Assembly: GCA_017439845.1 (NCBI GenBank)
Contig: JAFSIJ010000043.1
Coordinates: 1-54,703 of the forward strand
Origin: Clostridia bacterium
Lineage (GTDB): Bacteria > Bacillota > Clostridia > Oscillospirales > Acutalibacteraceae
Reading direction: 5' to 3'
Length of the DNA stretch: 54,703 nt
The stretch's first letter is position 1. The number at the start of each line of letters is the position of its first letter. Both the position numbers and the translations under genes were made by a program. Shown piece after piece: positions 719 to 36,366 of the stretch. The notes below the pieces were generated by a model. It did no database searches. It was not told where the DNA came from and worked only from the letters and a program-made list of their open reading frames with translations.

Positions 719-1034
719 AAAGATATTAACACTTTTAGGATTTGCTGCAAAGAGCGGAAACCTTTCCTATGGAATGCAAGCAACAAAATATTCCGTGTTA
801 GGGAAAAAAGCAAAGTTGGTTTTGGTTTCCTATGAAATATCCGAAAAGAGCCGCAAAGAGATGGCTTTTGTATGCGATAAAAGCGCAGTGAAATGTGTTG
901 TTCTCGAAGAGTTTGATATAAACACCGTATCGGCGGCAATCGGCCGCAAGTGCGGAATACTGTCGATAAACGATAATCAGTTTGCTTCGGCAGTTTTGAA
1001 AACTTTATATGGAGGAAATGCTAATGACAAATAA
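711..1034 (+). CDS. ylxQ: L7Ae/L30e-family ribosome-associated protein (YlxQ-like)
   Basis: 107 aa with a TTG start that overlaps the ylxR stop. Conserved position immediately upstream of inf[10 protein letters not shown]-type N-terminus. Confidence 0.75.
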
Positions 1035-3537
1035 ATATAAAATAAGTGACCTTGCCAAAGATTTTTCTATGGTATCAAAGGAGCTTGCAGCACTTGTTTC
1101 TAATGCTTTGGGAGTTGAAAAGAAATCGAGCGCATCCTTAAATGAGGAAGAAATCGGAATAGTGTTTGATGCGATTACTAAGGCAAACACTGTTAAGAGC
1201 TTTAAAGAATATTTTGCTATGGGTGATGCCAAGAGGCAGGAAGCCGCCAAAAAGCGCGAGGATGATAAGAATAAGATGCTCGCTGAACAAATGGCTATTC
1301 TTGAACAGTTAAAGGCGGCAGCGGCAGCTCAAAATGCAGCGGCGCAGCCGAAGGAAGAGCCTAAGAAGGAAGAACCCAAAAAGGCAGAGGTTAAGAAAGA
1401 AGAGCCTAAGAAGGAAGCTCCTAAAAAGCAGGAGCCCAAGAAGGAAACTAAAAAAGCCGAGCCAAAGAAAGAGGAAAAGAAACCTGAAACTAAGAAGGAG
1501 CCTGAAATTATCATTGCTCCTCCTAAGAAGGAAAAAGTTCGTGGAGAGGCTCCTAACAGAGGACCGGCGCAGATTCGCCATATTGATACAAGAACATCAA
1601 ATGTAAATATCGATAAGTATAACGAGAAGTATGAGAATATTGCTCCTGCTAATGCTATGAAGGATAACTATACAAGAAAGCAGAAGATTAAGCAAAAATC
1701 TCAGGACTATCGCCGCCCGCAAGGTGCTAAACGCGAAACCGAGGCGGATAAGATGAGGAGACTTCAGCTTGAGAAAATCAAGAAAACTCCTATCACTGTT
1801 ACTGTTGGCGATGAGATTACAGTTGGTGAGCTTGCCGCCGCATTAAAGAAGACTGCGGCTGAGGTAATTAAGGAGCTTCTCAAACTCGGAATGATGACAA
1901 CTGTTAATCAGGTAATAGATTATGATACCGCCGAAATCGTTGTAACTGAAATGGGCGCAAAAATCGAGAGAGCGGTTGTTGTTACCATTGAAGAGCAAAT
2001 TATGGATGATACCGAGGATACCGATGAGAACTTGAAGCCGAGAGACCCGGTTGTAGTTGTTATGGGTCACGTTGACCACGGTAAGACTTCGCTTCTTGAT
2101 GCTATCCGCAATACCGCTGTAACCGATACTGAGGCAGGAGGAATTACACAGCATATCGGTGCTTACAGAGTAAATTGTAAGGGTCAGGATATAACCTTCC
2201 TTGATACCCCGGGTCACGCCGCATTTACCTCTATGCGCCAGCGTGGTGCTATGGCAACCGATATTGCAATTCTCGTTGTTGCTGCCGATGATGGTATAAT
2301 GCCGCAAACTATTGAGGCTATTAACCATGCAAGAGCGGCAGAGGTTCAAATCATTGTTGCAATAAATAAGATGGATAAACCCGACGCCAACCCCGATAGA
2401 GTGCTTCAGCAGTTAACCGAGCATTCGGTTGTTCCTGAGCAGTGGGGCGGCGATGTTATATGTGTTCCCGTTTCGGCTAAAACACACGATGGTATTGATA
2501 ACCTTCTTGAGAATGTTCTTCTCGTTGCCGAAATGATGGAATTAAAGGCTAACCCCGATAGGCGCGCAAAGGGTGTTGTTATCGAGGCTCGTCTTGATAA
2601 GGGTAGAGGCCCTGTTGCAACACTTCTCGTTCAGAATGGTACTCTTAATTCGGGCGATATAGTTGTTGCAGGAACCTCGGTTGGTCGTGTTCGTGTTATG
2701 ACCAACGAAAACGGAAAGACATTAAAGGTTGCGGGACCGAGTGTTCCTGTTGAGATAACCGGTCTTGCTGAAACACCTGATGCAGGCGATACCTTCGATG
2801 CAGTTTCTGATGAAAGACTTGCTCGCCAGCTTGTTGAACAAAGAAAGCAAAAGGCTAAGGAAGAAATCTTTAATGCTTCTCAGAAGGTTACACTTGATAA
2901 CCTCTTCTCTCAGCTCAGCGAGGGTGAGCTTAAAGAGCTTAAAATTATAGTTAAAGCCGATGTTCAGGGTAGTGTTGAGGCAGTTAAGCAAAGCCTTGAA
3001 AAGCTCTCTAACGAAGAAGTTAGAGTTAAGGTTATTCACGGCGGCGTTGGCGCTATCAATGAATCGGATGAAATGCTTGCAAAAACTTCGGGCGCTATCA
3101 TCGTTGGCTTTAACGTTCGTCCCGATGCGGTTGCAAAGGCTGCTGCCGATAAGGATGGCGTTGATATGCGTATGTATAGAGTTATCTATGACTGTATTGA
3201 GGAAGTAGAGGCTGCTATGAAGGGTATGCTCGCTCCGAAATATAGAGAAAATGTTCTTGGAACAGTTGAGGTTAGAGATACCTATAAGATTTCTAATGTT
3301 GGCACCATCGCAGGTTGTTATATAACCGATGGTAAGGTAACAAGAGCTTGTCAGATAAGAATTGTTCGTGATGGCATTGTTATCGCCGAGGATAAGATTG
3401 ATTCCTTGCGCAGATTCAAGGATGATGTTAAGGAAGTAGCGCAAGGCTATGAATGTGGTATAGGACTTGAGAAATTCTCCGATATTAAGGTTGGAGATGT
3501 ATTTGAGGCCTTTATTATGGAGGAATACAGAGATTAA
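1024..3537 (+). CDS. infB: Translation initiation factor IF-2
   Basis: G-domain motifs [17 protein letters not shown] and SAK. Lys/Glu/Pro-rich N-terminal linker. The ORF opens at 1009, but GGAGGA at 1011-1016 favours the ATG at 1024. Confidence 0.95.
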
Positions 3538-3893: not shown

Positions 3894-4887
3894 GATTAAG
3901 GCGGAGTGCAAGCTTCTTTCGCTTCGCAAAACTGCTCGTTTTCTTAAGAAAAGAGATAATTTTATTATACTGACCCACGCTTCTCCCGATGGTGATACAT
4001 TAGGCTCCGCCTATGCCCTTTATTACGGACTTAAAGAAATAGGCAAGGTGGCTGCAGTTATATGCCCTGATGTTATCCCGAAAAAGTACGGATATTTTGC
4101 CCGTACAACCGACCACGTTTTAAAGGAAAACTCAACCGTTATTGCGGTGGATGTTGCCGATGCTAATTTGCTTGGCGCATTAAAAGAGGAGTTTGGCAGT
4201 ATAGTAGACCTTAATATTGACCATCACGTTTCTAATATGAGATTTGCTAAAAATCTCTATCTTGATGCGGATGCATCATCAACCGCTGAAATTATATTTG
4301 AGCTTTTGCTTGCTATGAAGGTTAATATAAACGATATAACTGCAAGAGCAATATATACGGGTATCGCAACCGATACGGGTTGCTTTAAGTATTCCAATGT
4401 GAATGCAAAAACCCACCTTATTGCTTCTATGTTATATGAATATGAGCTTGATGCAGCCGAAATTAACCGCATTATGTTTGATACTAAATCTCACGCTTTG
4501 TTAGAGCTTGAAAGACAGGTGCTCGAAACAGCCGAATTCCATTTTGATAATAAATGTATGCTTTTGTGCGTAACCGCCGAAATGCAGGAGAAAACAGGCT
4601 GCAGCGGAACCGAGCTTGAGGGAATTGCGGTAATCTCGCGCAGTGTTGAGGGAGTTGAAGCAGGAATAACTATTAAACAAATCGGAGATGATGAGTTTAA
4701 GGTTTCGCTTCGAACCTTCCCGCCACTTGATGCATCGGCTATATGCAAAATGTTGGGCGGCGGCGGCCACAAGGGTGCCGCAGGTGCAACAGTTAAGGGC
4801 AGTATAGATGAGGTTAAAACTGCTGTTCTCGATGCCGTAAAGCAGGTTATGGAGGATACTTATGCAGGGGTTAATACTTCTCGATAA
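3883..4887 (+). CDS. nrnA: DHH/DHHA1 phosphoesterase (NrnA-type oligoribonuclease/pAp phosphatase)
   Basis: Motifs HASPDGDTLGS, DHH (NIDHH) and GGGGH (DHHA1). The ORF opens at 3859, but the ATG at 3883 has a GAGGAAAG Shine-Dalgarno. Confidence 0.85.
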   Translation: MKNKIKAECKLLSLRKTARFLKKRDNFIILTHASPDGDTLGSAYALYYGLKEIGKVAAVICPDVIPKKYGYFARTTDHVLKENSTVIAVDVADANLLGALKEEFGSIVDLNIDHHVSNMRFAKNLYLDADASSTAEIIFELLLAMKVNINDITARAIYTGIATDTGCFKYSNVNAKTHLIASMLYEYELDAAEINRIMFDTKSHALLELERQVLETAEFHFDNKCMLLCVTAEMQEKTGCSGTELEGIAVISRSVEGVEAGITIKQIGDDEFKVSLRTFPPLDASAICKMLGGGGHKGAAGATVKGSIDEVKTAVLDAVKQVMEDTYAGVNTSR

Positions 4888-6583
4888 AACTAAAGATATT
4901 ACCTCGTTTGGCGCCGTTGCGCGCATAAAACACCTTTGCGGTGAAAAGAGGGTAGGTCACACCGGTACGCTAGACCCATTGGCTACCGGTGTTTTGCCCG
5001 TGCTTATCGGTAAGGCAACTGCATTAAGCGGCTATATGCTTGATGCCGATAAAAGATACATCGCAACGGTGAAGCTTGGTGTCACTACCGATACCGAGGA
5101 TATAACGGGTGAGGTAATAGAAGAGCGAGAAGTTAGCGTAACTCAAGATAGGTTAGAAAAAACACTTCAAAAATTTGTTGGCAAGCTTATGCAACGCCCG
5201 CCAATGTATAGCGCACTTAAAAAGGATGGAATTCCTATGTATGAGCGCGCAAGAAGGGGCGAGAAAATAGATATCCCCGAAAGAGAAATAACCGTTCATT
5301 CGTTAAAGGTTTTAGAGTCGCTCAGCGCTGACAACACCTTTTCCTTTGAGGCGAGTGTCTCAAAAGGAACCTATATCCGTTCACTTATAAGGGATATAGG
5401 CGAGGAACTCGGTTGTGGCGCAGTGATGACCGAGCTTCGCAGAACCGAAACTGCGAATATAGATATTTCAAAATGCGTTAGCCTTGATAAGCTTAATTTC
5501 AAAAATATAAAGGACTATATAATAAACGAGGAAAATGCAGTTTCCTATATGAAAGAAGCTTTTGTAAGTGGGGCTCAGGCAGAACGATTCACAAATGGCG
5601 GAACCTTGAGCCTTGATAGACTTAAAATTGCGCCTAATCATAATGGAGAGCTTTTAAGGGTTAAATTTAAGGATAAGTTTTTAGGCGTTGGCAGGGTAGA
5701 TTTAGATAGCAGGGAGTTAAAGGTTGAGTGTGTTATAAACTATCCAAAGCTATCTAACGCTATAGCACTCGGCACCTTTGATGGCGTTCATTCGGCTCAT
5801 AAAAAGGTGTTAGACCTGCCCGAAAAATATAAAAAGATAGCGGTTTGCTTTTCTTTGCCACCCAAAACATATTTTGGAAATGAGGCAAGGCTTTTAACCG
5901 ATGAACAAACGAAAAAAGCAATGCTAAAGAATGCAGGAATGGATGAGGTATGCTCGCTCGAATTTAGCGACTTTCGGGATAAAACCCCAATGGAATTCCT
6001 TTTATTCTTGAAAGAAAGATTTTCACCAAAGGTTATTTCCTGCGGATATAATTATCGCTTTGGAAAGGATGCCGCAGGCGATATAAAGCTCCTTGAAGCT
6101 TTTTGCAAGGAAAACGAAATCAAGCTTATTTGCGAAAAAAAGGTTGAAAGGGGCGGCAAAACTGTTTCTTCAACCGCAATTCGTGAGCTTTTAGCGAATG
6201 GGAAAATCAAAGAGGCAAACTCAATGCTCGGGTATAAGTTTTCTTTCACTGCCGAGGTTATCGGTGGAGATAAAAGAGGGCGAACGCTCGGCTTTCCAAC
6301 GGTTAATCAGCGTTATCCCGAAGAGTTAGCAAGGCTTAAAAACGGAGTTTATAAAACAAGGGTTATCGTTAAGGGAGAAGAATATGAGGGAATTACCAAT
6401 ATAGGTAACAGACCAACATATCCTATAGATTTTATCGTTAGCGAAACCTACATTAAGAATTTTTCAGAAGAAATATATGGAGAAAAGGTAACGATAATTC
6501 CGCTTAGCTTTTTAAGAGAGGAAAAGAAATTCGTAAACATAGAAGAATTAAAACAACAAATTTTACTTGATTTAGGTGAATAG
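4862..6583 (+). CDS. truB/ribF: Fused tRNA pseudouridine-55 synthase TruB (aa ~1-295) and riboflavin kinase/FAD synthetase RibF (aa ~296-573)
   Basis: N-terminal half has the TruB catalytic motif HTGTLDPLATGVL and a PUA-like tail. C-terminal half has the RibF motifs GTFDGVHSAH and GDKRGRTLGFPTVN. One uninterrupted 573-codon ORF. Confidence 0.85.
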   Translation: MQGLILLDKTKDITSFGAVARIKHLCGEKRVGHTGTLDPLATGVLPVLIGKATALSGYMLDADKRYIATVKLGVTTDTEDITGEVIEEREVSVTQDRLEKTLQKFVGKLMQRPPMYSALKKDGIPMYERARRGEKIDIPEREITVHSLKVLESLSADNTFSFEASVSKGTYIRSLIRDIGEELGCGAVMTELRRTETANIDISKCVSLDKLNFKNIKDYIINEENAVSYMKEAFVSGAQAERFTNGGTLSLDRLKIAPNHNGELLRVKFKDKFLGVGRVDLDSRELKVECVINYPKLSNAIALGTFDGVHSAHKKVLDLPEKYKKIAVCFSLPPKTYFGNEARLLTDEQTKKAMLKNAGMDEVCSLEFSDFRDKTPMEFLLFLKERFSPKVISCGYNYRFGKDAAGDIKLLEAFCKENEIKLICEKKVERGGKTVSSTAIRELLANGKIKEANSMLGYKFSFTAEVIGGDKRGRTLGFPTVNQRYPEELARLKNGVYKTRVIVKGEEYEGITNIGNRPTYPIDFIVSETYIKNFSEEIYGEKVTIIPLSFLREEKKFVNIEELKQQILLDLGE

Positions 6584-6584
6584 A

Positions 6585-7175
6585 ATGTTTTTAAAAAAAG
6601 GACCAACTTATGATTGGCTCATAGCGGGGCTCGGAAATCCCGGTATCCAATATGAAAAAACCCGCCATAATGCAGGCTTTATGTGTATCGATGCCTTTGC
6701 CGAAAAGAATGGCGCAAGGATAGAAAAACATAAATTTGATGCTATTATCGGCGAAGCAAGAATAGGGGATAGCAGGGTTTTGCTCGCAAAACCGCAAACC
6801 TTTATGAATCTTTCGGGCAAGTCGGTAACCGCTATTGCAAAATTTTATAAAATTCCTTATGATAAGGTTTTGGTAATCTTTGATGATATCTCGCTCGATG
6901 TTGGTAAAATAAGAGTGAGAAGGTCGGGAAGTGATGGCGGCCATAACGGAATAAAGGATATTATCGAGCTTTCGGGCACAAATAATATCCCGAGAATCAA
7001 GGTGGGTGTTGGTAAAAAGCCGCACCCCGATTATGACCTTAAGGATTATGTTCTCGGCAAGTTCCCCGAGAGCGAAAAGGAAAACCTTGAAAATGCCATA
7101 AATAAGTGCATAAAAGCGGCAGAAGAAATAATCAAGCGCGGAATTGATTCCGCTATGAATAAATATAATGGTTAA
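6585..7175 (+). CDS. pth: Peptidyl-tRNA hydrolase
   Basis: GLGNPG...TRHNAGF and GGHNG motifs. The ATG at 6585 follows AGGTGA; the ORF opens at GTG 6576. Confidence 0.9.
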   Translation: MFLKKGPTYDWLIAGLGNPGIQYEKTRHNAGFMCIDAFAEKNGARIEKHKFDAIIGEARIGDSRVLLAKPQTFMNLSGKSVTAIAKFYKIPYDKVLVIFDDISLDVGKIRVRRSGSDGGHNGIKDIIELSGTNNIPRIKVGVGKKPHPDYDLKDYVLGKFPESEKENLENAINKCIKAAEEIIKRGIDSAMNKYNG

Positions 7176-10100
7176 TTCAATGAATTTTTTATTTAAAGAG
7201 TTATCTCTTGATGCCGATTATAAATCACTTCTAAATAGTGTTTTGAAGGATAGAATGCCGATAGTTGCAACAGGTCTTTCGGATATCCATAAGGCTCTTG
7301 TTGTGTCGGCGCTAACAAGCGAGCTTTCTCGAAAGGCGGTTATAATAACCGATACCGAGGCTGCGGCTAACACCCTTAAGGATGACTTTAATTCCTTCGG
7401 CGTTTCCTGTGTTAATTTCCCTTCAAGAGATTATTGCATAGGCGATATAGAAGGCTATTCAAGAGAGTATGAACATAAGAGAATACACACCCTATCCAAG
7501 CTTTTGGATGGGGATTTTTCCGTGCTCACAATGTCGGTTGAGGCAGCCTTGCAGTATACCGTTCCAAAAGAGATTTTAAGGGATAATCTAATCGAACTTA
7601 AAGTCGGCAAAGAGTATGATTTAAAGGCTCTTATCAGCGCGCTCATTAGCGGCGGATATTCAAGATGTGAGCAATGCTCGGGCGCAGGTCAGTTCTCGGT
7701 TCGCGGCGGAATTTTGGATGTATTCCCCGTTAATTCTCTCTATCCTTATAGGGTTGAATTTTGGGGCGATGAAATCGATAGCATTTGCGAATTTGATGTT
7801 TTAAGTCAAAGAAGAAATGAAAGTGTGGATAGTATAACTGTTTGCCCTGCAAGTGAGGTTATATTTGATGCGGGAGAGCTTGCGAAAACGCTTGAAGAAT
7901 ATGCCGAAAACGGAAAAGACTTAACAGATAAGCAGGAAATAATGCTAAACCGAGATGCCGAAAAGTTATATAGCGGAATAAATATATGCTCCGATAGATA
8001 TATCCCCCTTATCTACAAAGAGGGACAAACGATTTTTGATTATTTAGATGAAAATGCAATTTTCATTCTTGCCAACAGCGGAAATATATCCGCTCAAATA
8101 AAAACTCTTTCCGAGCGGCAGAATATGGATGCCGAAAACTTTTTAAGCGAGGGCTTTTTATCCAAAGAAACCTTTAAGCTTTATCTTAACGAGGATGAGC
8201 TTTATGATAGACTTTGTAATGTTTGCTTTATGGAGAATTTCCCGAGAAATTCTTATGAAATGGCAATAAAGGATGTTGTTAATTTTAACTTAAAGCGTTC
8301 ATCCGCCTGGAGTGGAGATATAAATATACTGCTTGATGATATTTCCTATTTGGTTGAGCAGGGCGGAAAGGTTGTTATATTGGCAGGTGAAAAGCGTGCC
8401 GCTATGCTTCTTAGCGAGCAGCTTTGCGAAAAGGGAATGCCCTGCCGCTATGATGAAAAACCCGAGGAAATAGGAAAGGGAATAACCGTTCTTGCAGGCG
8501 GACTTTCGGCAGGCTTTGAAATACCATCCGTAAGATTTATGCTCATAACCCACCGTTATATAGCGGCGGAAAACAAAAAAAGGAAAAAATATAAGGTTAA
8601 GGATGCCAAGGCGATAAATTCAATAGAGGAGCTCAAAAAGGGTGACTATGTTGTCCATGATGCCCATGGTATAGGCATTTTTGATGGAATTAACCGCATA
8701 ACCAACGATGGTGTTACAAAGGACTATATCCGCATTAAATATGCAAAAAGCGATGTTCTTTATGTCCCTGTTAATCAGCTTGATTTAGTTTCTAAATATA
8801 TCGGTGCCGCGGCGGAGAACGGAAGCATTAAGGTTAACCGCTTGGGCGGAGTCGAATGGCAAAAAACAAGAAGCCGTGTTCGTGCGGCGGTTAAAAATAT
8901 GGCAAAGCAGTTAACCGCATTATATGCTCGAAGAATGGCGGCAAAGGGCTATGCCTTTTCACCCGATACCGACCTTCAAAATGACTTTGAACGCAGATTC
9001 GAGTATGATGAAACCGATGATCAGCTTCGCGCAATAAATGAAATAAAACGCGATATGGAACGGGAAGTTCCGATGGATAGGCTCCTTTGCGGCGATGTCG
9101 GCTTTGGCAAAACCGAGGTTGCCTTGCGCGCGGCATTTAAGTGTATAAGCGAGGGCAAGCAGTGTGCGGTACTTGTGCCAACAACAATTCTTGCTATGCA
9201 GCATTATAATACCATCCTTCGCCGTTTTGGTGATATGCCCGTAACGGTTGGTATGCTCTCTCGTTTTGTAACAAAGCGTAAGCAGGAGCAAATTGTAAAA
9301 GACCTTAAAGACGGAAGACTCGACCTCGTTGTCGGAACGCATAGACTTATCTCAAAGGATGTTGAGTTTAAAAATATCGGTCTTGTTATTATCGATGAGG
9401 AACAGCGCTTCGGTGTTGCCCAAAAGGAAAGGCTTAAAGAATTATATCCCTTTGTAGATATATTAACCCTTAGCGCAACACCGATACCAAGAACACTTAA
9501 TATGGCTATGTCAGGACTTCGTGATATGTCGGCAATAGATGAAGCACCGGGGGATAGATACCCCGTTCAAACCTATGTGCTTGAACAAAATATGGGTGTT
9601 ATAATAGATGCCATAAATAAGGAAATAAGGCGAGGCGGTCAGGTTTATTATCTGCACAACAGGGTTGAAACCATAACACACTGCGCCGCAAGGCTGAAAC
9701 AACGATTGCCCGAGGATGTTAATATCGGTATTGCCCACGGAAAAATGAGTGAGGATGAGCTAAGCGATATTTGGAAAAAGCTTCTCGAACACGAGATAGA
9801 TGTTCTTGTTTGCACAACCATTATCGAAACAGGTGTCGATGTTCCGAATGCCAACACGCTTATAATAGAAAATGCCGATAGAATGGGACTCTCTCAGCTT
9901 CATCAATTAAGAGGTAGAGTCGGCAGATCTCCAAGGCGAGCCTATGCATATTTCTGTTTTGAAAGAAACAAACAGCTAACCGATATAGCTTCAAAAAGAC
10001 TTGAAGCCATAAGGGAATATACCGAGTTTGGCTCAGGCTTTAAAATAGCTATGCGCGACCTTGAAATAAGGGGAGCAGGCAGTATTTTAGGCGGCGAGCA

Positions 10101-10617
10101 GCACGGAAATATGGAGGCAGTCGGCTATGATATGTATCTAAAACTGTTGTCCGATGCGGTTAATGAGCAAAACGGTGTTGAGGTAAAGCAGGAAATTGTT
10201 TGCAATATAGACCTTAATGTTTCGGCATTTATTCCCGATAATTATATCGAGTCGCTCCCTGCAAGACTTAATATTTATAGGAGAATTGCCGATATAAAAA
10301 CGGATGAAGATGCATCGGATGTTATCGATGAGCTCTGCGACCGTTTTGGTGAGCCGCCAAAAACTGTTATGGGGCTTATAAATATCTCGCTTCTCAGAAA
10401 CAAAGCGCAAAGCCATTATATTTCGGAGATAACGCAAGAAAACAAACAAATTCTTCTTGAAACGAACGAATTAAGGGAAGAAACCGTTTCGGCACTCTCT
10501 TCATTTTTTGGTGACCGCTTTAGTCTTTCGGCAACCGCTAAAAACGGATATTTGATAAAAATACCCGACAATGAAAAGCTAACGAGTGTCATCGAAGAGA
10601 TCATAAAAGCACTTTAG
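7168..10617 (+). CDS. mfd: Transcription-repair coupling factor Mfd
   Basis: 1149 aa. Contains a UvrB-homology region, a CarD/TRCF RID domain, and superfamily-2 helicase motifs (GDVGFGKTEV, DEEQRFG, QLRGRVGR). Follows pth as in many Firmicutes. Start is ambiguous between 7168 and 7180. Confidence 0.95.
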   Translation: MVNSMNFLFKELSLDADYKSLLNSVLKDRMPIVATGLSDIHKALVVSALTSELSRKAVIITDTEAAANTLKDDFNSFGVSCVNFPSRDYCIGDIEGYSREYEHKRIHTLSKLLDGDFSVLTMSVEAALQYTVPKEILRDNLIELKVGKEYDLKALISALISGGYSRCEQCSGAGQFSVRGGILDVFPVNSLYPYRVEFWGDEIDSICEFDVLSQRRNESVDSITVCPASEVIFDAGELAKTLEEYAENGKDLTDKQEIMLNRDAEKLYSGINICSDRYIPLIYKEGQTIFDYLDENAIFILANSGNISAQIKTLSERQNMDAENFLSEGFLSKETFKLYLNEDELYDRLCNVCFMENFPRNSYEMAIKDVVNFNLKRSSAWSGDINILLDDISYLVEQGGKVVILAGEKRAAMLLSEQLCEKGMPCRYDEKPEEIGKGITVLAGGLSAGFEIPSVRFMLITHRYIAAENKKRKKYKVKDAKAINSIEELKKGDYVVHDAHGIGIFDGINRITNDGVTKDYIRIKYAKSDVLYVPVNQLDLVSKYIGAAAENGSIKVNRLGGVEWQKTRSRVRAAVKNMAKQLTALYARRMAAKGYAFSPDTDLQNDFERRFEYDETDDQLRAINEIKRDMEREVPMDRLLCGDVGFGKTEVALRAAFKCISEGKQCAVLVPTTILAMQHYNTILRRFGDMPVTVGMLSRFVTKRKQEQIVKDLKDGRLDLVVGTHRLISKDVEFKNIGLVIIDEEQRFGVAQKERLKELYPFVDILTLSATPIPRTLNMAMSGLRDMSAIDEAPGDRYPVQTYVLEQNMGVIIDAINKEIRRGGQVYYLHNRVETITHCAARLKQRLPEDVNIGIAHGKMSEDELSDIWKKLLEHEIDVLVCTTIIETGVDVPNANTLIIENADRMGLSQLHQLRGRVGRSPRRAYAYFCFERNKQLTDIASKRLEAIREYTEFGSGFKIAMRDLEIRGAGSILGGEQHGNMEAVGYDMYLKLLSDAVNEQNGVEVKQEIVCNIDLNVSAFIPDNYIESLPARLNIYRRIADIKTDEDASDVIDELCDRFGEPPKTVMGLINISLLRNKAQSHYISEITQENKQILLETNELREETVSALSSFFGDRFSLSATAKNGYLIKIPDNEKLTSVIEEIIKAL

Positions 10618-10891
10618 GGTGACAAGACTCGAACCTGTCACGCCTGACAAATAATAATTTTTAGTTTTTTCTTGCCTCATCATTTGTAATACGACAGTAT
10701 TACTGCATTCTTCGGCTTCACCTCTCCAAAAAATTATTTATTTGCAGGTCGAAGAATTTCTCTTAGCCACCTTTTTCTAAAAGGCGCAGCGTGAAATTTG
10801 CAGTAAGGCTGTCGCCTTACAAAAATAAGCGCAAGAAAGGGAGTAAAAGGTGGCAAGCGAAATCGTAATAGGTTCGAATCTTGTCACCCTA
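10615..10891 (+). repeat. 273-bp terminal-inverted-repeat element, copy A (10617-10889 plus flanking TA dinucleotides); MITE-like or structured RNA
   Basis: Ends are GGGTGACAAGACTCGAACC and GGTTCGAATCTTGTCACCC, which are inverted. Internal long-range helices and two covarying hairpins. A second copy lies at 34787-35059 in reverse orientation. No ORF inside. Confidence 0.8.
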
Positions 10892-10989: not shown

Positions 10990-12117
10990 ATGAAAGCATT
11001 AAAGAGATTATTTGTAATTCTTTTGGCTGTTGCTATGATAGTAACTGTTGTGGGTTGTCATCCAAAGGATGAGGTTGCTGTTACTATTGGCGACTTCGAG
11101 TTCACTTCGGCTTACTATATGTGCGCTCTTATGGCGGCAGACAGTGAGGCTAAATCTAAGGTTGATGAAGCAAAGGCTAACGAAACTGAGGAAACCGAAG
11201 AGGAGCATAACCACGAGGAAGGCGAAGAGGAAGTTGAAGAAACAACCGAAGAAACTGATTATTATGCCGAGAAAATCGATGATAAGGATTATGTGACATG
11301 GGTTGAAGATACAGCTATCGAAAACCTAAAGAAAATTGCCGCTTATAAAACTCTTTGCAAAGAGAATAAATTAGAGCTTGATGAAGAAACCGAAAGCTCG
11401 GTTGATTCTTATACCGATTATTATTGGTCAAGCTATGGCTATTCGATGTATTATGAGCCAAACGGTGTTGGTAAAACAACCTATGCTAACTATATGAGAG
11501 ATTCATATTATTCAAGCCTTTATTTTGACCACCTTTATGCCGAAGATGGCGAAAAGGAAATTGCCGCAAAGGATGTTAAGGCAAAAATCAACGATAATTT
11601 CATAATAGCAAATATGCTAACCGCATCTTTCTCTGAAATGGAAGAGGATGATGTTAAGGCAACTCAAAAGCAGTTCAAGGCTTATGAGAAGGAGCTTAAA
11701 GAGGGCAAGAGAAGCTTCCTTGAAATCTATAACGAATATAACAAGGTAGAGGAAACCGAAGAGGAAACAACTGCACAAGAAACTGAGGAGAGTAAACCCA
11801 AGGATGAAAACGCAACCATTCTCGGTGCCGAAGGAACAACCTATGAGTCCGAGTATTATGATACCGTTAAGAAGATGAAAAAGGGTGCTATCAAGCTCAT
11901 TGAGGAAGAGGATGGAATAGTATTAGTTGTTAAGCAGGATATAAAGGCTGATAAGTATTACTATGAAACACTCGATTCTGAGGCTCGCCACCTTATCGCT
12001 GATGATGAGTTTGAAGCTGATATTTTAGAGTATGCAAAAACCTTAAAGGCTGATATCAATAAGTATGCAACAGGTCAGTTCAAGGTTAAGAAAATCAAGG
12101 AACCCGAATATAACTAA
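10990..12117 (+). CDS. Putative lipoprotein, acidic, PrsA/SurA-N-like region without a recognisable PPIase domain
   Basis: Signal peptide with lipobox (AMIVTVVGC). Very Glu/Thr-rich segments. Sits after mfd, where prsA-like genes often occur. Function is not established. Confidence 0.55.
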   Translation: MKALKRLFVILLAVAMIVTVVGCHPKDEVAVTIGDFEFTSAYYMCALMAADSEAKSKVDEAKANETEETEEEHNHEEGEEEVEETTEETDYYAEKIDDKDYVTWVEDTAIENLKKIAAYKTLCKENKLELDEETESSVDSYTDYYWSSYGYSMYYEPNGVGKTTYANYMRDSYYSSLYFDHLYAEDGEKEIAAKDVKAKINDNFIIANMLTASFSEMEEDDVKATQKQFKAYEKELKEGKRSFLEIYNEYNKVEETEEETTAQETEESKPKDENATILGAEGTTYESEYYDTVKKMKKGAIKLIEEEDGIVLVVKQDIKADKYYYETLDSEARHLIADDEFEADILEYAKTLKADINKYATGQFKVKKIKEPEYN

Positions 12118-12217: not shown

Positions 12218-13051
12218 ATGATAAAAATTTTAATTGATTCTTCATCAGATTCAAAAAAGGATGAAGGCATTTTCGATTATTTTATGCCGATTTCGGTTAA
12301 TATAGATGGAAATGAATATAAGGATGGCATTGATATAAATGCAGATAAGTTTTATTCTCTTTTAAAATGGGCGAAGGAATTTCCCAAAACTTCTCAGCCA
12401 TCACCAAATGAGTTTGTGGAAATTTTTGAAAAGGTGAAAGAGGATGGGGATGAGCTGATATATTTATGCCTTTCTTCCGCCCTTAGCGGAACATATCAGG
12501 GTGCCCTCATAGCCAAGGAAATGGTTGATTATGATGGGATATATATCGTTGATACCAAAACTGCAACCCGTATGATAGGTGTTATTGCAAAATATGCGAG
12601 AGATCTTATTGATAAGGGCTTAAGTGCCCGTGAAATCGCCGCAAGGTGCGATGAGTTCAAGTCAAGAGTTAAAGCGATAGCCGGTGTTGATACACTTGAA
12701 TATCTCTATAAAGGCGGAAGACTGAGTAAAACGAGTGCCACAGTGGGAAAAATCGCCGATATAAAGCCGATAATTTCGGTAAGCGAAGAAGGAAAGGTCG
12801 AAGTCAAGGGAAAATGCATCGGCAAGGGCAGAGCTATGCAGTTTATCGTGGATAAGATATCAGGCTATAATATAGATAAAAACTTCCCGATTTATTCGCT
12901 TTATACCTTTGGTGAGGAGAATTGCGCGCTACTTGAAGAAAGATTAAAGGAAAAGGGATTTGATGTTCATGGCCGACTTCAAATCGGCTCAACGATTGGA
13001 GCCCACACAGGCCCCGGTGTTTATGCGGTGATGTTTGTATCTGAAAAATAA
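12218..13051 (+). CDS. DegV-family fatty-acid-binding protein
   Basis: 277 aa. DegV hallmarks present: TSQPSP, SSALSGTYQ, LEYLYKGGRLS. Confidence 0.85.
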   Translation: MIKILIDSSSDSKKDEGIFDYFMPISVNIDGNEYKDGIDINADKFYSLLKWAKEFPKTSQPSPNEFVEIFEKVKEDGDELIYLCLSSALSGTYQGALIAKEMVDYDGIYIVDTKTATRMIGVIAKYARDLIDKGLSAREIAARCDEFKSRVKAIAGVDTLEYLYKGGRLSKTSATVGKIADIKPIISVSEEGKVEVKGKCIGKGRAMQFIVDKISGYNIDKNFPIYSLYTFGEENCALLEERLKEKGFDVHGRLQIGSTIGAHTGPGVYAVMFVSEK

Positions 13052-26615: not shown

Positions 26616-28561
26616 TTACTTTATTGCTTTAGTTTCAATTTCGTTGACTGCTTTTGCGATGAATTCATCGATAGGCATAACTCCGAGGTCTCCGCCTTCG
26701 CCGCGCATTCTAACCGAAACAGTTCCGTTTTCAACCTCATTGTCACCCGCAACTAACATATAGGGCACCTTTTGAAGTCTTGCTTCGCGTATCTTATAAC
26801 CGATTTTTTCATTTCGGTCATCAAGCTCGACGCGCATACCCTTCGCCTCAAGCTTTGCTTTGATTTCATACATATAATCAAGATGTCTGTCAGCAATAGG
26901 CAAGAGCTTAACCTGTGTCGGAGCAAGCCACATCGGGAAAGCACCTGCATATTTCTCAATGAGAAGAGCAAGGGTTCTCTCATAGCAACCAATTGATGTT
27001 CTATGAATGATATAGGGGTTCTTCTTTGTTCCGTCGCGGTCAACATATTCCATACCAAACTTTTCAGCAAGCATCTGGTCAACCTGAATGGTGATAAGAG
27101 TATCCTCTTTTCCGTGAACATTGCGGATTTGGATATCAAGCTTCGGTCCGTAGAACGCCGCCTCACCGATACCAATTTTATAAGGTATCTCAAGGTGGTC
27201 AAGGATTCTTCCCATAATTCCCTGAGCCTCATCCCATTGCTCAGCAGTTCCTATATATTTATCCTTATCAGCAGGATCCCACTGTGAGAAGCGGTAGGAA
27301 ACATCCTCATAAAGACCTAGGGTTTTGAGCATATAAATTGCAAGCTCCAAGCAACCCTTAAATTCTTCCTCTAACTGTTCAGGGGTACACATTAAGTGGC
27401 CCTCGGAAATTGTGAACTGGCGAACACGAATAAGTCCGTGCATCTCGCCACTTTCCTCATTTCTAAATAGAGTAGAGGTCTCGTTATAGCGAAGTGGTAG
27501 GTCGCGGTATGAACGAGCGCGGTTGAGATACGCTTGATATTGGAAGGGGCAGGTCATTGGGCGAAGAGCAAAGCATTCCTTTGTTTCATCTGTCGGGTCA
27601 CCCAAAACAAACATACCATCAAGATAATGGTCCCAGTGGCCCGAAAGCTTGTAAAGGTCGCTCTTTGCCATATAGGGAGTCTTGGTTAAAAGCCATCCGC
27701 GTTTTGCCTCTTCATCCTCAACAAAGCGTTGGAGAAGCTGAATATCTTTGCTCCCTTTGGAAGCATAATCGGAAGACCTTGTCCAATAACATCAACGGTG
27801 GTGAAAAGCTCCATTTCACGACCGATTTTATTATGGTCGCGCTTCTTTGCTTCCTCAATTCTTGTCAGATGTTCTTCAAGCATTGAAGCCTTGGGGAATG
27901 CAGTTCCGTAAATGCGGCAAAGCATCTTATTATCGGAATTTCCTCTCCAATAAGCACCCGTTGCCGAGGTGAGCTTGAATGCCTTAACAGCGCCTGTGCT
28001 TAAAAGGTGTGCGCCTGCGCAAAGGTCGGTGAATTCGCCTTGCGAATAGAAAGAAATTTCTTCACCCTCGGGTAAGTCTTCAATAAGCTCAACCTTATAG
28101 GGTTCATCCTTCTCCTTGAAGAATTTTATTGCATCCTCGCGTGTCATAGTAAAGCGAGAAAGCTCAATATCCTCTTTAACGATTTTCTTCATTTCAGCCT
28201 CGATTTTAACAAGGTCATCGGGGGTGAACTTCTCATCGGTATCAAGGTCATAATAAAAACCATCATCAACTGCAGGGCCAATAGCGAGCTTAACATCAGG
28301 ATAAAGTCTTTTAACAGCCTGCGCTAATATATGCGATGCAGTGTGGCGGAATGTCCATTTACCATATTCATCATCAAATGTGAGAATTTCGAGAGCGCAG
28401 TCTTCGTTAAGTTTTGTGCGAAGGTCGGCATTCTCTCCGTTAATTCTTGCGGCACAAGCAACACGCGCAAGTCCCATACTGATTTGCTTTGCGGCATCAA
28501 TAACCGAAATACCCTTTTCGAGTTCCAGTATAGAGCCATCCTTTAAAGTTACCTTAATCAT
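26616..28561 (-). pseudogene. thrS: Threonine--tRNA ligase, reading frame broken by a 1-nt frameshift near 27741-27746
   Basis: ORF 27686-28573 gives the TGS, second-additional and start of the catalytic domains, ending ...LPIMLPKGAKI. The adjacent frame continues IQLLQRFVEDEEAKRGWLLTKTPYMAKSDLYKLSGHW into ORF 26616-27671 (class II core plus anticodon-binding domain). Adding one base restores about 648 aa. Confidence 0.85.
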
Positions 28562-28571
28562 ATTTACCTCC

Positions 28572-28800
28572 AAAAAAATAAACTCCGTCCCAAAAGGGAC
28601 GAAGCATTAAAAATCTCCGCGGTTCCACCCGAATTCCGTTTTATAAAAAACGACACTTTGGTTACTCTTAACGCGAGTAAAACGTCTGTGTTTGTTACCC
28701 ACAGCGCTCGAAGGTGGTCTTCATTCTTCCAAGGTCTGCGCGGCTTTCAGCCCATGACCGCGCTCTCTTAAAAACCTAAACGGAAAAACTACTGTTCTTC
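28572..28800 (-). promoter_or_regulatory. T-box riboswitch leader (threonine specifier, probable ACC) with terminator
   Basis: All read on the minus strand. AGAGAG box. Probable specifier ACC-A at about 28718-28715. T-box sequence AATTCGGGTGGAACCGCGG at about 28617-28635. Terminator CTTCGTCCC-TTTT-GGGACGGAG plus U-run at 28572-28604. Confidence 0.8.
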
Positions 28801-28819
28801 TCATAGCTTTTACCTATAC

Positions 28820-33922: not shown

Positions 33923-34783
33923 ATGAACGGAAATATAGTTATCACGAGTGACAGTACAACGGATTTAAGCGCCGCTTTAAAGGAAAGATATGGCGTTATA
34001 ACACTTCCACTCGGTATAAATTTAGGTGATAAAACCTATCTTGATGGTATTGATATAACTCCCGATTTTATCTATGAGCACCACAGCAAAACAGGTGAGC
34101 TTCCAAAAACAAGCGCCGCAAATCTCGGCGAGTCACTTGATTTTTTCAAGCAGTTCACCGATGAGGGCAAAAAGGTTATTCATTTCACTATCAGCTCCGA
34201 AATGTCTTCTACATATAGAAACGCTTGCCTTGCGGCAGAAGAGCTTGAAGGTGTCCGCGTTATTGATACTAAAAATCTTTCAACAGGTGGCGGTCTTCTT
34301 GTTGTAGCCGCTGCTGAGCTTCGTGATGCAGGAAAATCTTTTGATGAAATTGTGAGCGAGGTTGAAGCGTTAGTTCCTTGTGTTGATGCTTCGTTTGTTA
34401 TTGATAGTCTTGAGTATCTCCATAAGGGCGGCAGATGTTCCGCTCTTGCTATGCTCGGTGCAAATCTTTTAAAATTAAAGCCCTGTATTGAGGTTAAAAA
34501 TGGCTCTATGGGCGTTGGTAAAAAATATCGCGGTAAGTATGATGAGGTTTTAAAGCAGTATGTTAAGGAGCGCATCGGCGATGCATCTGATATAGTGCTT
34601 GACCGAGTTTTCGTAACCCACGCAGGTTGTGATGAAAAGGTTGTTAACGATATCGTTGATATTGTTAAGAAATCAGCCCCGTTTGGTGAGGTGTTCTTAA
34701 CAAGAGCAGGCTGCACCATCTCTTCACACTGCGGTGCTAACACCTTAGGCGTTCTCTTTATAAGAAAGTCACCTATCGAATAA
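33923..34783 (+). CDS. DegV-family fatty-acid-binding protein (second, divergent paralog)
   Basis: 286 aa. Motifs PKTSAAN, SSEMSSTY, LEYLHKGGRCS. Confidence 0.85.
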   Translation: MNGNIVITSDSTTDLSAALKERYGVITLPLGINLGDKTYLDGIDITPDFIYEHHSKTGELPKTSAANLGESLDFFKQFTDEGKKVIHFTISSEMSSTYRNACLAAEELEGVRVIDTKNLSTGGGLLVVAAAELRDAGKSFDEIVSEVEALVPCVDASFVIDSLEYLHKGGRCSALAMLGANLLKLKPCIEVKNGSMGVGKKYRGKYDEVLKQYVKERIGDASDIVLDRVFVTHAGCDEKVVNDIVDIVKKSAPFGEVFLTRAGCTISSHCGANTLGVLFIRKSPIE

Positions 34784-34784
34784 G

Positions 34785-35061
34785 TAGGGTGACAAGAGTC
34801 GAATCGGTTGCGATTTCGCTTGCCACCTTTTACTGCCTTTCTTGCGTTTATTTTTGTAAGGCGACAGCCTTACTGCAAATTTCACGCTGCGCCTTTCAAA
34901 AAAGGTGGCAGGTAGAAATTCTTCGACCTGCCAAATAAATAATTTTTTGGTAGAGCGAAGACGAGGAATGCAGTAATACTGACGTATTACAAATGACGAG
35001 GCAAGAAAAAACTAAAAATTATTATTTGTCAGGCGTGACAGATTCAACTTTTGTCACCCTA
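34785..35061 (-). repeat. 273-bp terminal-inverted-repeat element, copy B (34787-35059 plus flanking TA), inverted relative to copy A
   Basis: The reverse complement aligns end to end with 10617-10889, with about 28 differences by hand alignment. Same length and same GGGTGAC...GTCACCC termini. Confidence 0.8.
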
Positions 35062-35116: not shown

Positions 35117-35153
35117 AGCCCTTGCGGAAATATCCGCGAGGGCTGTTTCTTTT
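35117..35153 (+). terminator. Rho-independent terminator (probably the original degV terminator)
   Basis: AGCCCTTGCGG-AAATAT-CCGCGAGGGCT followed by GTTTCTTTT. Confidence 0.75.
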
Positions 35154-35195: not shown

Positions 35196-36101
35196 ATGAA
35201 TTATAATGTAAAGGTGGGCGAGAAAGTGCAAACTATATGTGTTGCCGATGTGGTTATAAATATTGACAGTGCGGATAAGGAGTACTTTACCCGCCGTTAT
35301 AAAGAGTATGAGGTAGAGTATACCGATAATCCTGATATGTGGATAAAAACGGAGTGTATCGAGAAAATTGATGAGCCAAAGGGCGAGCTTATTGAGAATA
35401 TAAGAACCTCATATATCGTAAAAACCGAAGATGGCTTCCTTTGCCGATATGCAAAATCTTCAAAAACAGGTAAGATTGCGTATGCTATTTATTACAATGA
35501 AGATTATAGCAATGTAAAGATAGTTATGGAAAAGGGCTTTATTTTCCAAAAGCTCAATAATAGAGAATGGGAATACCTGTATACAGGGTTTATGTTTGCG
35601 AATAGGCTCACAAACCTTGGAGGTACCGTTCTTCATAGCTCGGGTATGGCTTATAAGGATATAGGAATTGTCTTTTCGGCAGACCCCGGAACAGGAAAAT
35701 CAACCCATGTTTCGCTTTGGAAAGAGCGCTTCCAGAATGATGTTGAAATAGTTAACGATGATAAGCCTGCTCTTAGAATAATTGATGATAAGTTTTATAT
35801 GTTCGGCACACCTTGGAGCGGAAAAACCGAGCTTAATATAAACACAAAAAAAGAATTAAAAGCTATATTTTTTATTGAACGCGATACTGAAAATAAGGTT
35901 GAGCGAATGAGCGTTGCAGATAGCGTTTTAAACCTTTCCCGCCAGCTTCCAAATCCATTTTATGATAAAAATGTAGGCATAAAAACAGTAAAGCTTATTG
36001 AAAAATTATATGCTTTAAATGTGCCTATTTATAGGCTTCGCTGCAGTATCAGTCAGGATGCTGTAACAGCAGTATATAACGAAGTAATAGGAGAAAAGTG
36101 A
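35196..36101 (+). CDS. HPr-kinase-C-domain-like P-loop protein (HprK-related kinase of peptide-modification clusters)
   Basis: GGTVLHSSGMAYKDIGIVFSADPGTGKSTHVSLW resembles the HprK C-terminal Walker A region. Followed by a PqqD gene. An extended -10 (TGaTATAAT, 35184-35192) lies only 3 nt before ATG 35196, so GTG 35226 (after AAAGGTGGG) may be the true start. Confidence 0.6.
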   Translation: MNYNVKVGEKVQTICVADVVINIDSADKEYFTRRYKEYEVEYTDNPDMWIKTECIEKIDEPKGELIENIRTSYIVKTEDGFLCRYAKSSKTGKIAYAIYYNEDYSNVKIVMEKGFIFQKLNNREWEYLYTGFMFANRLTNLGGTVLHSSGMAYKDIGIVFSADPGTGKSTHVSLWKERFQNDVEIVNDDKPALRIIDDKFYMFGTPWSGKTELNINTKKELKAIFFIERDTENKVERMSVADSVLNLSRQLPNPFYDKNVGIKTVKLIEKLYALNVPIYRLRCSISQDAVTAVYNEVIGEK

Positions 36102-36364
36102 TGAAAATTAAAGAAGGTTTTATCAAAAGTAATTTAGGGGATGAATGTGTTGTTGTGCCTGTTGGTGCGCAAACTGTTGATTTTCGCGGACTTATCACCC
36201 TTAATGAAACAGGCGAGTTTATATGGGAAATTTTGCAAAACGAAAGTGAGATTTCTGATATAGTGAGTGCGATGACAAAGGAATATGATATTGATGAAGC
36301 AACCGCAAAGGCGGATGCCGAAGAATTTGTTAAAATACTTAGCGAAAAGGGATTTCTTGAATAA
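36098..36364 (+). CDS. PqqD-family protein (RiPP recognition element-like)
   Basis: 88 aa. The size and pattern (...VVVPVG...LNETGEFIWEIL...EEFVKILSEKGFLE) are typical of PqqD/RRE proteins. Four-nt overlap with the upstream gene. Confidence 0.7.
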   Translation: MMKIKEGFIKSNLGDECVVVPVGAQTVDFRGLITLNETGEFIWEILQNESEISDIVSAMTKEYDIDEATAKADAEEFVKILSEKGFLE

Positions 36365-36366
36365 AA

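Follow-up and report, generated by a model that had tools for sequence, protein, structure and literature searches.

The 273-bp unit that directly follows mfd in the genome of an uncultured Clostridia bacterium of the family Acutalibacteraceae is a real, previously undescribed, noncoding miniature inverted-repeat transposable element (MITE) whose insertion site is TA and whose hosts are uncultured gut Acutalibacteraceae. As a transposon it is of an ordinary type, and what sets it apart is a strongly conserved two-armed fold. The window analyzed here, which comprises 54,703 nt of contig JAFSIJ010000043.1 (GCA_017439845.1), was found by profile search to contain exactly two copies of this element, which we designate family 1. 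Copy A lies on the plus strand at positions 10617 to 10889 (profile match over positions 1 to 274, 299.8 bits), with junctions spanning 10615 to 10891 that read TA-GGGTGACAAGACTCGAACC...GGTTCGAATCTTGTCACCC-TA, and copy B lies inverted, on the minus strand, at 34787 to 35059 (292.3 bits). The original prediction of a 273-bp unit with an equal-length, opposite-strand copy was therefore confirmed to the base, as was the presence of TA on both sides of each copy: at 10615 to 10616 and 10890 to 10891 for copy A, and at 34785 to 34786 (toward degV, a single base beyond its stop codon at 34781 to 34783) and 35060 to 35061 (the far side) for copy B. Identity between the copies, previously estimated by hand at about 90%, was 252 of 276 aligned columns, or 89.8% on a 26-sequence alignment. 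The inverted termini proved slightly longer than the ∼20 bp first proposed, at 22 to 26 nt, and a repeat search yielded 29-nt arms at 90% complementarity when the flanking TTA/TAA was included. The left terminal inverted repeat, GGGTGACAAGACTCGAACCTGTCAC, occupies positions 10617 to 10641 and the right one, ...GTAATAGGTTCGAATCTTGTCACCC, positions 10865 to 10889; both were delimited by the repeat search and by covariation in the helix that they form (helix 1). The claim that the unit contains no open reading frame was essentially right: the sole candidate is a 40-amino-acid frame with a TTG start on the minus strand (10734 to 10856), and indels of 1 to 2 nt between copies argue against coding.

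Profile and BLAST searches recovered 35 distinct full-length copies, 267 to 275 nt long, from ∼20 Acutalibacteraceae/Oscillospiraceae gut genomes. The DNA surrounding these copies is unrelated from copy to copy, while copies within one genome are 90 to 98% identical; genome JAZRPH01 carries at least six, and many are present also in GCA_045546955.1 and in the CAYJEV01, JAZNXU01, and JAZOOH01 MAGs. An IS1182/IS5-like transposase gene that is itself multicopy harbors one nested copy. When genomes were scanned for the hairpin motif described below, 76 loci (L001 to L076) were returned, nearly all in Acutalibacteraceae/Oscillospiraceae metagenome-assembled genomes (MAGs), with many at contig ends and several genomes giving multiple matches. 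A metagenome scan returned 21 loci. It had been suggested that a sequence restricted to the same syntenic positions in relatives would not be mobile; the dispersed copies in unrelated contexts contradict such a restriction, and orthologous sites empty of the element were found for both window positions. Searches of plasmids and phages with blastn gave no match to the element, and a viral scan gave 0 matches. The earlier statement that the sequence belongs to no named RNA family also held: a gathering-score Rfam search of the window matched only an unrelated T-box, the best Rfam matches within the element had E values of >4, and the sister families were likewise without a match. A full-text literature search with the hairpin and terminus sequences retrieved no relevant paper.

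Exact TA/TA flanks were present in 30 of the 35 distinct copies. Given that TA makes up 7% of dinucleotides in the window, this frequency is not attributable to chance. The target context is roughly T-TA-A, and the right TA is followed by A in 22 of 35 copies. A piggyBac-like TTAA duplication was considered and rejected, since duplication does not extend to a third and fourth base. At locus L047, two elements abut one another and have a single TA in common. The target can be viewed at mfd, which encodes the transcription-repair coupling factor (7168 to 10617, plus strand; Pfam domains DEAD, UvrB_inter, CarD_TRCF_RID, Helicase_C, and TRCF). Three relatives (L102, L103, and L104) have an empty mfd site, at which the gene ends in TAG, TAA, and TAA, respectively. 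The next gene follows mfd after 78 to 93 nt in these relatives versus 372 nt in the window. Absence of the element shortens the intergenic region by 275 nt. Subtraction of the element and one TA from the window leaves GCACTT-TAA, identical to L104. The original prediction had cautioned that the TA might merely extend the palindromic termini; this caveat is largely answered by the empty mfd sites, where a single TA lies inside the TAA stop. All of the empty sites are from other species (Mfd C-terminal identity, 71 to 74%), and none is from a strain of the same species. The degV orthologue in L076 is also without the element, in a sequence that has diverged and has no TA. Among four contigs encoding an identical DegV, there was no same-species empty site: all four extend to the insertion site, where the element is present, in full in two and cut off by the contig end in the other two. 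Exact look-ups of Mfd and of the downstream protein returned no record.

These comparisons indicate how the element came to be joined to mfd. It entered the TA of a TAA stop codon, so that the left TA of the duplication constitutes the first two bases of the present stop, and its first G turned that stop into TAG. As originally noted, mfd ends at 10617, on base 1 of the element. Because the stop is re-created by this G, Mfd is unchanged, and the element now stands at the start of the mfd 3′ untranslated region (UTR). Copy B follows the degV stop and precedes a predicted terminator-like hairpin outside the element (35117 to 35144, plus strand) and is thus probably part of the degV 3′ UTR. Insertions in the TA of stop codons, or a few bases from gene ends, are recurrent across the family, and many copies lie 0 to 130 nt from gene ends. 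The first bases of the element (bases 1 to 6; G, then GGGTGA) supply TAG and TGA stops in two of the three incoming frames, and from either side the termini, (TA)G and GGNTGA, close two of three frames within seven bases. A stop supplied by the terminus (TA-G or GGG-TGA) was found in 8 of the 29 cases in which the 3′ end of a gene faces the element. Frame-closing termini probably make insertions at gene ends harmless and explain why such insertions survive. Relative to the gene reading into it, the element was in the opposite orientation in 22 cases and the same orientation in 7 (14 versus 5 within 130 nt), counts that are small and drawn from loci that are not all independent.

The fold of the element is very stable on either strand. 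The minimum-free-energy (MFE) fold of the plus strand was predicted at −100.1 kcal/mol (z = −9.3), with 0 of 200 shuffled sequences folding as well, and that of the minus strand at −106 kcal/mol (z = −10.1). On both strands the prediction consists of a terminal stem and two arms of ∼100 nt, each capped by a conserved hairpin. The left arm (10643 to 10748, plus strand; helices 2 to 6) is built on an AT-rich stem (10643 to 10662 with 10728 to 10748) that encloses apical hairpin 1 (10686 to 10707, plus strand), GTAATA-CGACAG-TATTAC followed by TGCA, a motif common to all sister families. At the dyad center is a junction motif, GGTCGAAGA (10747 to 10755), that is present also in families 2 and 3. 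The right arm (10756 to 10863, plus strand; helices 7 to 11) comprises ATTTC/GAAAT and then GCCACCTTTT (10766 to 10775) paired with AAAAGGTGGC (10845 to 10854), and encloses apical hairpin 2 (10799 to 10820), which reads GTAAGG-CGACAG-CCTTAC followed by TGCA on the minus strand and mirrors hairpin 1. Both long-range helices that had been proposed by eye are thus in the MFE fold at the coordinates first assigned to them. Among the 26 aligned sequences, compensatory changes support the helix 10766 to 10775/10845 to 10854, while the AT-rich helix varies so little that the alignment is scarcely informative for it.

Compensatory changes were detected in 27 of 74 plus-strand pairs and 34 of 80 minus-strand pairs, including 6 of 12 pairs in helix 8 of the right arm, and 12 of 21 pairs in helix 1 (the termini) had changes on both sides. 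The observed covariation was greater than in any of 500 shuffles or any slid control. Across the 26 copies, 95% of left-right cells in the termini were paired, at positions that vary freely between copies. Mean pairwise identity was higher in the interior (83.5%) than in the termini (75.8%). The fold is under selection, and compensatory substitutions maintain it. Among helices common to the two strand predictions, G·U and A·C mismatches were equally rare (27 and 25, respectively); no transcribed strand is singled out by this comparison, and we assign none. Neither a promoter, internal or outward, nor an intrinsic terminator was predicted inside the element.

The same architecture recurs well beyond family 1. 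At least four sequence-divergent sister families have in common a length of ∼270 to 284 nt, a Y-shaped fold, and the apical hairpin TTGTAAnnCGACAGnnTTACTGCA; the fold is predicted to be the same in families 1, 2a, 2b, 3, and 4. Across families, the hairpin retains an invariant loop at a fixed distance, ∼70 nt, from the end of the element, while the termini of the other families differ from those of family 1. A hammerhead-like sequence in family 3, CUGAUGAG, was set aside: it has no Rfam support and is missing from families 1 and 2.

We consider it probable that the element is a noncoding, nonautonomous DNA transposon that is mobilized by a DDE transposase acting in trans and duplicating TA, most likely one of the IS630/Tc1-mariner type. 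Such a transposase would bind both inverted termini, cut out the element, and paste it into a TA target, which repair would then duplicate. Targeting and duplication of TA is a hallmark of IS630/Tc1-mariner among bacterial insertion sequence (IS) families, but transposases of the IS30 family and some of the IS5 group also give 2-bp duplications, which makes IS630 the likeliest family rather than a demonstrated one. The original prediction, a MITE mobilized by an IS630/Tc1-mariner-type transposase, is accordingly supported as to the MITE, with the transposase family suggested by the TA duplication. The full-length IS with GGGTGAC... termini for which it called was not found: among the 76 loci and the window, no TA-flanked pair of inverted repeats with these termini was located at a spacing of 600 to 3,500 bp, and only unrelated pairs were seen. 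A phmmer search of the open reading frames of all loci with an approximate IS630-like probe, a weak test, gave no match, and no longer version of the element was present in the 21 metagenome loci or in viral contigs. The IS1182/IS5-like IS was examined as a possible parent through an all-against-all open reading frame comparison and rejected; its termini are TCAGTCTGTCGAA, and it is instead a target of the element. DDE cut-and-paste acting on double-stranded ends leaves unexplained the conservation of the interior over the termini, the compensated stems, and the constant length of the sister families. The fold is probably not a host function. We propose that the element itself needs it to propagate or to be tolerated: the transposase or a host factor might recognize subterminal sites in it, for instance, or it might form a self-contained RNA structure that leaves host transcripts undisturbed.

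The original prediction had offered a structured RNA in 3′ UTRs as the alternative. The element could be primarily a structured RNA module that owes its spread to transposition and is kept for a role in transcripts, in 3′ UTRs or operon spacers, where it might act as a stabilizer of mRNA 3′ ends, an RNase III processing site, a partial terminator, or a protein-binding RNA; the apical hairpin (loop CGACAG, closing TTGTAA/TTACTGCA) would then be a putative recognition site for an RNA-binding protein. The stability of the fold (z = −9.3 and −10.1), internal helices that covary well beyond controls, the better-conserved interior, and a hairpin, length, and Y shape common to divergent families are all consistent with this proposal, as are the position of copies within transcription units, such as copy B, and a possible orientation bias (22:7 overall, 14:5 within 130 nt). 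However, the equal rarity of G·U and A·C gives neither strand the look of a functional RNA, no promoter or terminator was predicted inside the element, Rfam offers no match, and the orientation counts are small and come from partly nonindependent loci. On balance, we regard such a role as unlikely. The symmetry between strands would instead be expected of DNA hairpins, and could point to site-specific recombination, or to a folded single DNA strand as the moving form, in place of DDE cut-and-paste. Candidate movers would be an HUH/Y1 transposase, as for REPIN and IS200/IS605 PATE, or a serine recombinase with a TA crossover dinucleotide, in which case the TA at the two junctions would not represent a true duplication. 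The invariant-loop hairpin ∼70 nt from the end across families is in keeping with this mode of movement, as is the complementarity that the termini of each copy maintain (95% of cells) while varying freely between copies. Nevertheless, IS200/IS605, PATE, and REPIN elements lack both inverted termini and identical flanking dinucleotides, whereas 30 of 35 copies of the element possess both, and no such recombinase gene was noticed beside any copy. To our knowledge, the bacterial serine transposons (IS607) use GG and are without long perfect inverted termini, which counts against a serine recombinase. We therefore judge movement of this kind to be improbable.

The termini also invited comparison with tRNA, as GGTTCGAATCTTGTCACCC resembles a T-arm plus the 3′ strand of an acceptor stem, and a 5-bp stem closing a TTCGAAT or TTCGACT loop can be read into the right terminus. 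Yet ARAGORN found no tRNA in the window, and termini differ in the other families. Variants such as L074 (ACTGATTTGACTGTTGT) no longer form the T-arm pairing but keep left-right complementarity. These variant termini effectively refute a tRNA origin, and we give a tRNA-derived or tRNA-mimicking element next to no credence. A broader proposal arises from the Y-shaped fold and the hairpin TTGTAAnnCGACAGnnTTACTGCA, which persist in at least four families with only faint sequence similarity otherwise. The elements might constitute a distinct class of structure-dependent mobile elements in which a single strand of DNA or RNA would itself, once folded, be the substrate or effector, either as the substrate of a hairpin-recognizing recombinase with a TA crossover or as a protein-bound mobile RNA module. 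We hold this proposal to be speculative, with a small chance of being correct, and a TA-inserting MITE moved by a DDE transposase remains the preferred reading.

Among described elements, Stowaway MITEs are eukaryotic and are mobilized by Tc1/mariner transposases. The element resembles them in its TA duplication, lack of coding capacity, strong foldback, and location near genes; unlike it, they have eukaryotic hosts and unrelated sequences, and we know of no description of a specific internal hairpin conserved across Stowaway families. REPIN and IS200/IS605 PATE are likewise small, nonautonomous, and defined by conserved hairpins, but they are moved by HUH transposases and have neither terminal inverted repeats nor target duplications, and membership in either group is contradicted by the long inverted termini and the TA on both sides. 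The pneumococcal MITE RUP, attributed to IS630-Spn1, is also noncoding, inserts at TA, is multicopy with terminal inverted repeats, and has been found inside IS transposase genes (PMC2229807), as is one copy described here. In contrast, RUP is 107 bp with a single stem-loop and termini that match a known IS, whereas the element is 273 bp with two arms, belongs to a different phylum-level lineage (uncultured Clostridia), and has no parent IS among those found. The Correia/NEMIS elements of Neisseria are TA-flanked MITEs with inverted termini and, like the element, no known parent transposase; they are cotranscribed with neighboring genes, and their RNA hairpin is processed by RNase III (PMC2229807). 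Correia elements differ in being 104 to 157 bp, in folding as a single end-to-end hairpin, and in carrying IHF and promoter motifs, and no sequence relationship to the element would be expected. Two arms are seen also in the Caulobacter CIR RNA model, in which the 5′ and 3′ sections form separate long stem-loops (PMC2229807). However, CIR is only partly MITE-like and is centered on the GANTC methylation motif, unlike the element with its canonical inverted termini and TA duplication.

Together, these data document a MITE superfamily, active and rich in families, among uncultured gut Acutalibacteraceae/Oscillospiraceae, in which mobile elements are almost unexplored. Repeats of the element break metagenome assemblies, as seen from the many copies at contig ends and the two short degV contigs that end inside it, and knowledge of the family aids the assembly and annotation of MAGs. 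The re-creation of stops in two of three frames from either side is a neat example of transposon tolerance at gene ends, and it also accounts for apparent TAG stops fused to a repeat. If the elements do form a structure-dependent class, they would not be passive internal-deletion derivatives of an IS630-type IS. The conserved interior, the two-armed fold, and the common hairpin fall outside the textbook model of a MITE, and the hairpin provides a handle for the search for a partner protein.

The element fused to the 3' end of mfd (copy A, + strand; 10615-10891 with its flanks) reads ...AAAGCACTT-TA-GGGTGACAAGACTCGAACCTGTCAC...GTAATAGGTTCGAATCTTGTCACCC-TA-AGGGAATT, and domain content identifies the ORF upstream (7168-10617) as Mfd. 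The original prediction placed the G of the mfd TAG stop codon at the first base of the element, an inverted copy of equal length elsewhere in the window, and two long-range helices between the termini, and each of these observations was borne out. Base 1 of copy A completes the TAG of the ORF; copy B (34787-35059, reverse orientation) is likewise 273 nt long with TA on both flanks, and the two copies share 252 of 276 columns in pairwise alignment. Both helices (10766-10775 with 10845-10854, and 10643-10662 with 10728-10748) are present in the minimum-free-energy fold of copy A, which reached -100.1 kcal/mol on the plus strand (z = -9.3) and -106.4 kcal/mol on the minus strand (z = -10.1). The left half of the element resembles the reverse complement of the right half, giving a degenerate foldback overall. 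A profile built from 26 copies matched the window at copies A and B only. The window has two DegV-family paralogues: copy B directly follows one (33923-34783), and a single gene separates copy A from the second, which is downstream (12218-13051), a proximity that is probably coincidental.

A hairpin matching GTAAnnCGACAGnnTTAC, with TGCA after it, occurs in each half of the element. Scanning one genome per prokaryotic species for this motif yielded 76 loci, nearly all from uncultured Acutalibacteraceae, Oscillospiraceae, or "Eubacteriales" gut MAGs; certain genomes held many matches, and many matches lay at contig ends, as expected of a repeat that breaks assemblies. Approximately 10 matches in unrelated taxa, with non-complementary nn positions, were rejected as chance. 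In BLAST and nhmmer searches, the window's family (family 1) amounted to 35 distinct full-length copies (267 to 275 nt, 79 to 89% identity to copy A) with mutually unrelated flanks. Exact TA dinucleotides bordered both sides of 30 of these copies (TA makes up 7% of dinucleotides in the window), and three of the other five had TA on one side and, on the opposite side, a TA shifted by one base. Because the third flanking base is not repeated, the target-site duplication spans 2 bp rather than TTAA or TNA. Copies inside one genome were 90 to 98% identical; the 95 to 98% sequence identity in JAZRPH01 points to fairly recent amplification there. Two short metagenome contigs with degV (L079 and L080) ended inside copy B, illustrating that the element fragments assemblies. 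The interior of the L079 copy differed from that in the window, suggesting that assembly merged copies or jumped from one to another.

Element-free orthologous sites were found in other species for both window copies. Three relatives with 71 to 74% identity to the window in the Mfd C-terminal region have mfd ending in TAG, TAA, and TAA, respectively, with no element following. The gap from mfd to the orthologue of window gene 10990-12117 is 78 to 93 nt in these relatives versus 372 nt in the window, 275 nt longer. Deleting the element and one TA from the window leaves GCACTT-TAA-GGGAATTAAAAATTTTTTTGTAGACAT, and one relative (L104) has GCACTT-TAA-TGCAAAAGTTTACAATTTTTTGTAGACAT at this site. The insertion was therefore into the TA of a TAA stop codon, which the first G of the incoming terminus restored as TAG. 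Similarly, the site of copy B is empty in L076, whose degV orthologue runs from stop codon to terminator without an element. No filled/empty polymorphism within a species was seen among contigs encoding identical DegV protein, all of which reach the insertion site and hold the element, in full or to the contig end.

Restoration of stop codons extends beyond mfd. A gene 3' end faces the element in 29 cases, and the terminus supplies the stop in 8 of them, as TA plus the terminal G in five and as GGG-TGA in three. The TGA at terminus bases 4 to 6 is invariant or nearly so, and the same position reads AGGTGA and GGGTAG in two divergent sister families, 2a and 2b, respectively. Owing to the inverted-repeat arrangement, a gene running into either terminus meets a stop within seven bases in two of its three reading frames, so insertion at the end of a gene is plausibly close to neutral. 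Elements were unevenly oriented with respect to the gene that reads into them (22 opposite to 7 same; 14 to 5 within 130 nt), a possible bias given that these counts are small and the loci partly non-independent.

RNAalifold predicted the same structure on both strands of 26 aligned family 1 copies: a terminal stem formed by the inverted termini and two arms of ∼100 nt, each capped by a conserved hairpin. Compensatory changes affected 27 of 74 plus-strand pairs and 34 of 80 minus-strand pairs, including pairs outside the termini. For example, GCCGCC...GGCGGC is replaced by GTCACC...GGTGAC or GCCACC...GGTGGC, ATTTC/GAAAT by GTTTC/GAAAC, and in the left arm GYC varies with GRC. In the terminal stem and two arms, 97.3% of cells were paired and the covariation score was 0.211, compared to 0.119 ± 0.004 in shuffled alignments (observed value reached in 0 of 500) and at most 0.073 with partners slid by 1 to 3 columns. 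Within helices predicted on both strands, G.U and A.C mismatches were equally rare (27 and 25), indicating selection on Watson-Crick complementarity of both strands and picking out no single transcribed strand. Mean pairwise identity was 83.5% in the interior versus 75.8% in the termini, an unusual pattern for MITEs; left and right termini are complementary within each copy, and the same positions vary freely between genomes.

The motif scan also matched elements with little other sequence in common with family 1. Families 2a, 2b, and 3 are TA flanked and start with AGGTGACAAGAATAATCCGAAC, GGGTAGAGCGAATAATCCGAAC, and GGGTGCCCGATATAATCCGAATC, respectively, directly after the TA. For family 3, a single MAG, CAYJEV01, accounts for ten copies at or near full length, along with a 178-nt variant and a truncated half-element. 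Family 4 (L008 and L027) has provisional boundaries, and its ends as drawn (start CTAG) are without TA flanks. All of these sister families are 270 to 284 nt long, with the same hairpin ∼70 nt from one end and the same Y-shaped fold, and the family 1 profile detects the sisters weakly (E ∼1e-7 to 1e-10). The second-arm hairpin varies by family with compensatory changes (GTTAATCC/GGATTAAC versus GCAAATCC/GGATTTGC); family 1 resembles a symmetrised form in which both ends have one kind of arm.

Some copies occur in clusters. At L047 (4815-5405), a solo terminus of ∼25 nt, a full family 1 element, and a full family 2-like element lie head to tail with a single shared TA at every junction, which suggests that the TA beside a resident element was reused as a target. 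At L006, judging from a right flank that starts alike, a family 1 element apparently also abuts another family's element across a single TA. In several metagenomes (L083-L087, L092-L094, and L097; e.g., L092 at about 6120-7930), a family 1 copy lies within the transposase gene of a multicopy insertion sequence of ∼1.5 kb with IS1182/IS5-like transposase ORFs and termini TCAGTCTGTCGAA.../...TTCGACAGACTGA; the gene was split in all retrieved copies. RUP, a pneumococcal MITE, is likewise found inside IS transposase genes (PMC2229807). This host IS directly adjoins GC-rich terminator-like hairpins in at least four different contexts. The hexamer CGACAG/CTGTCG occurs both in the termini of this IS and in the MITE hairpin loop, possibly by coincidence. 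Half-elements at L091 (670-762) and L100 (195-287) end just past the apical hairpin (...CCTTACTGCA) and run on into amino-acid-binding-protein-like coding sequence with the same junction and different outer flanks; they result from recombination or deletion, or else from chimeric assembly.

Taken together, the 35 dispersed copies, TA flanks, and empty sites support the MITE-like interpretation of the original prediction, with a DDE transposase that duplicates TA probably acting in trans. A constant TA duplication marks IS630/Tc1-mariner among the bacterial IS families. IS630 is thus the likeliest family, as an attribution rather than a demonstration, and RUP/IS630-Spn1 provides a precedent for an IS630-mobilised, TA-inserting MITE (PMC2229807). 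No TA-flanked pair of these termini in inverted orientation 0.6 to 3.5 kb apart was detected in the 76 genome loci and the window, a weak search of the retrieved loci found no IS630-like ORF, and the metagenome scan found no longer versions of the element.

The conserved fold, hairpin, and length go beyond a simple double-strand cut-and-paste model, leaving room for two alternatives. An RNA-level role in 3' UTRs is unlikely, and a structure-dependent mobilisation mechanism appears more doubtful still. Neither the element nor its sisters matched Rfam, and a tRNA identity was rejected by tRNA search. Plasmid and phage records showed no similarity to the element, viral contigs gave 0 matches, and a full-text literature search did not find its sequences.

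Elsewhere in the window, the sole Rfam family at gathering score was a T-box leader (RF00230, 105.5 bits; 28592-28813, minus strand) that precedes gene 27686-28573 on the same strand. One 573-aa ORF (4862-6583) carries TruB (pseudouridine synthase) and FAD synthetase/riboflavin kinase (RibF) domains in a plus-strand gene series that is otherwise of the classical infB-rbfA-truB-ribF-pth-mfd-like type; it looks like a truB-ribF fusion, which could instead be an artefact of start-codon choice or a frameshift. An 842-aa ORF (1009-3537) contains a lysine- and glutamate-rich repeat encoded by five tandem 15-nt units (GAAGGAAGAGCCTAA-like; 1350-1454, plus strand). Downstream of copy B, a small cluster (35196-36870) that may be a peptide-maturation cassette encodes a 301-aa protein that matched nothing in Pfam (the record of the relative shows a faint ScmC match), an 88-aa PqqD-like protein, and an S24-like peptidase.

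TA-targeting MITEs are already known as a kind, and the families described here are new among them: a previously undescribed family, indeed a superfamily, hosted by gut Acutalibacteraceae and Oscillospiraceae. Its features of most note are the termini that restore stop codons and the deeply conserved two-armed architecture.
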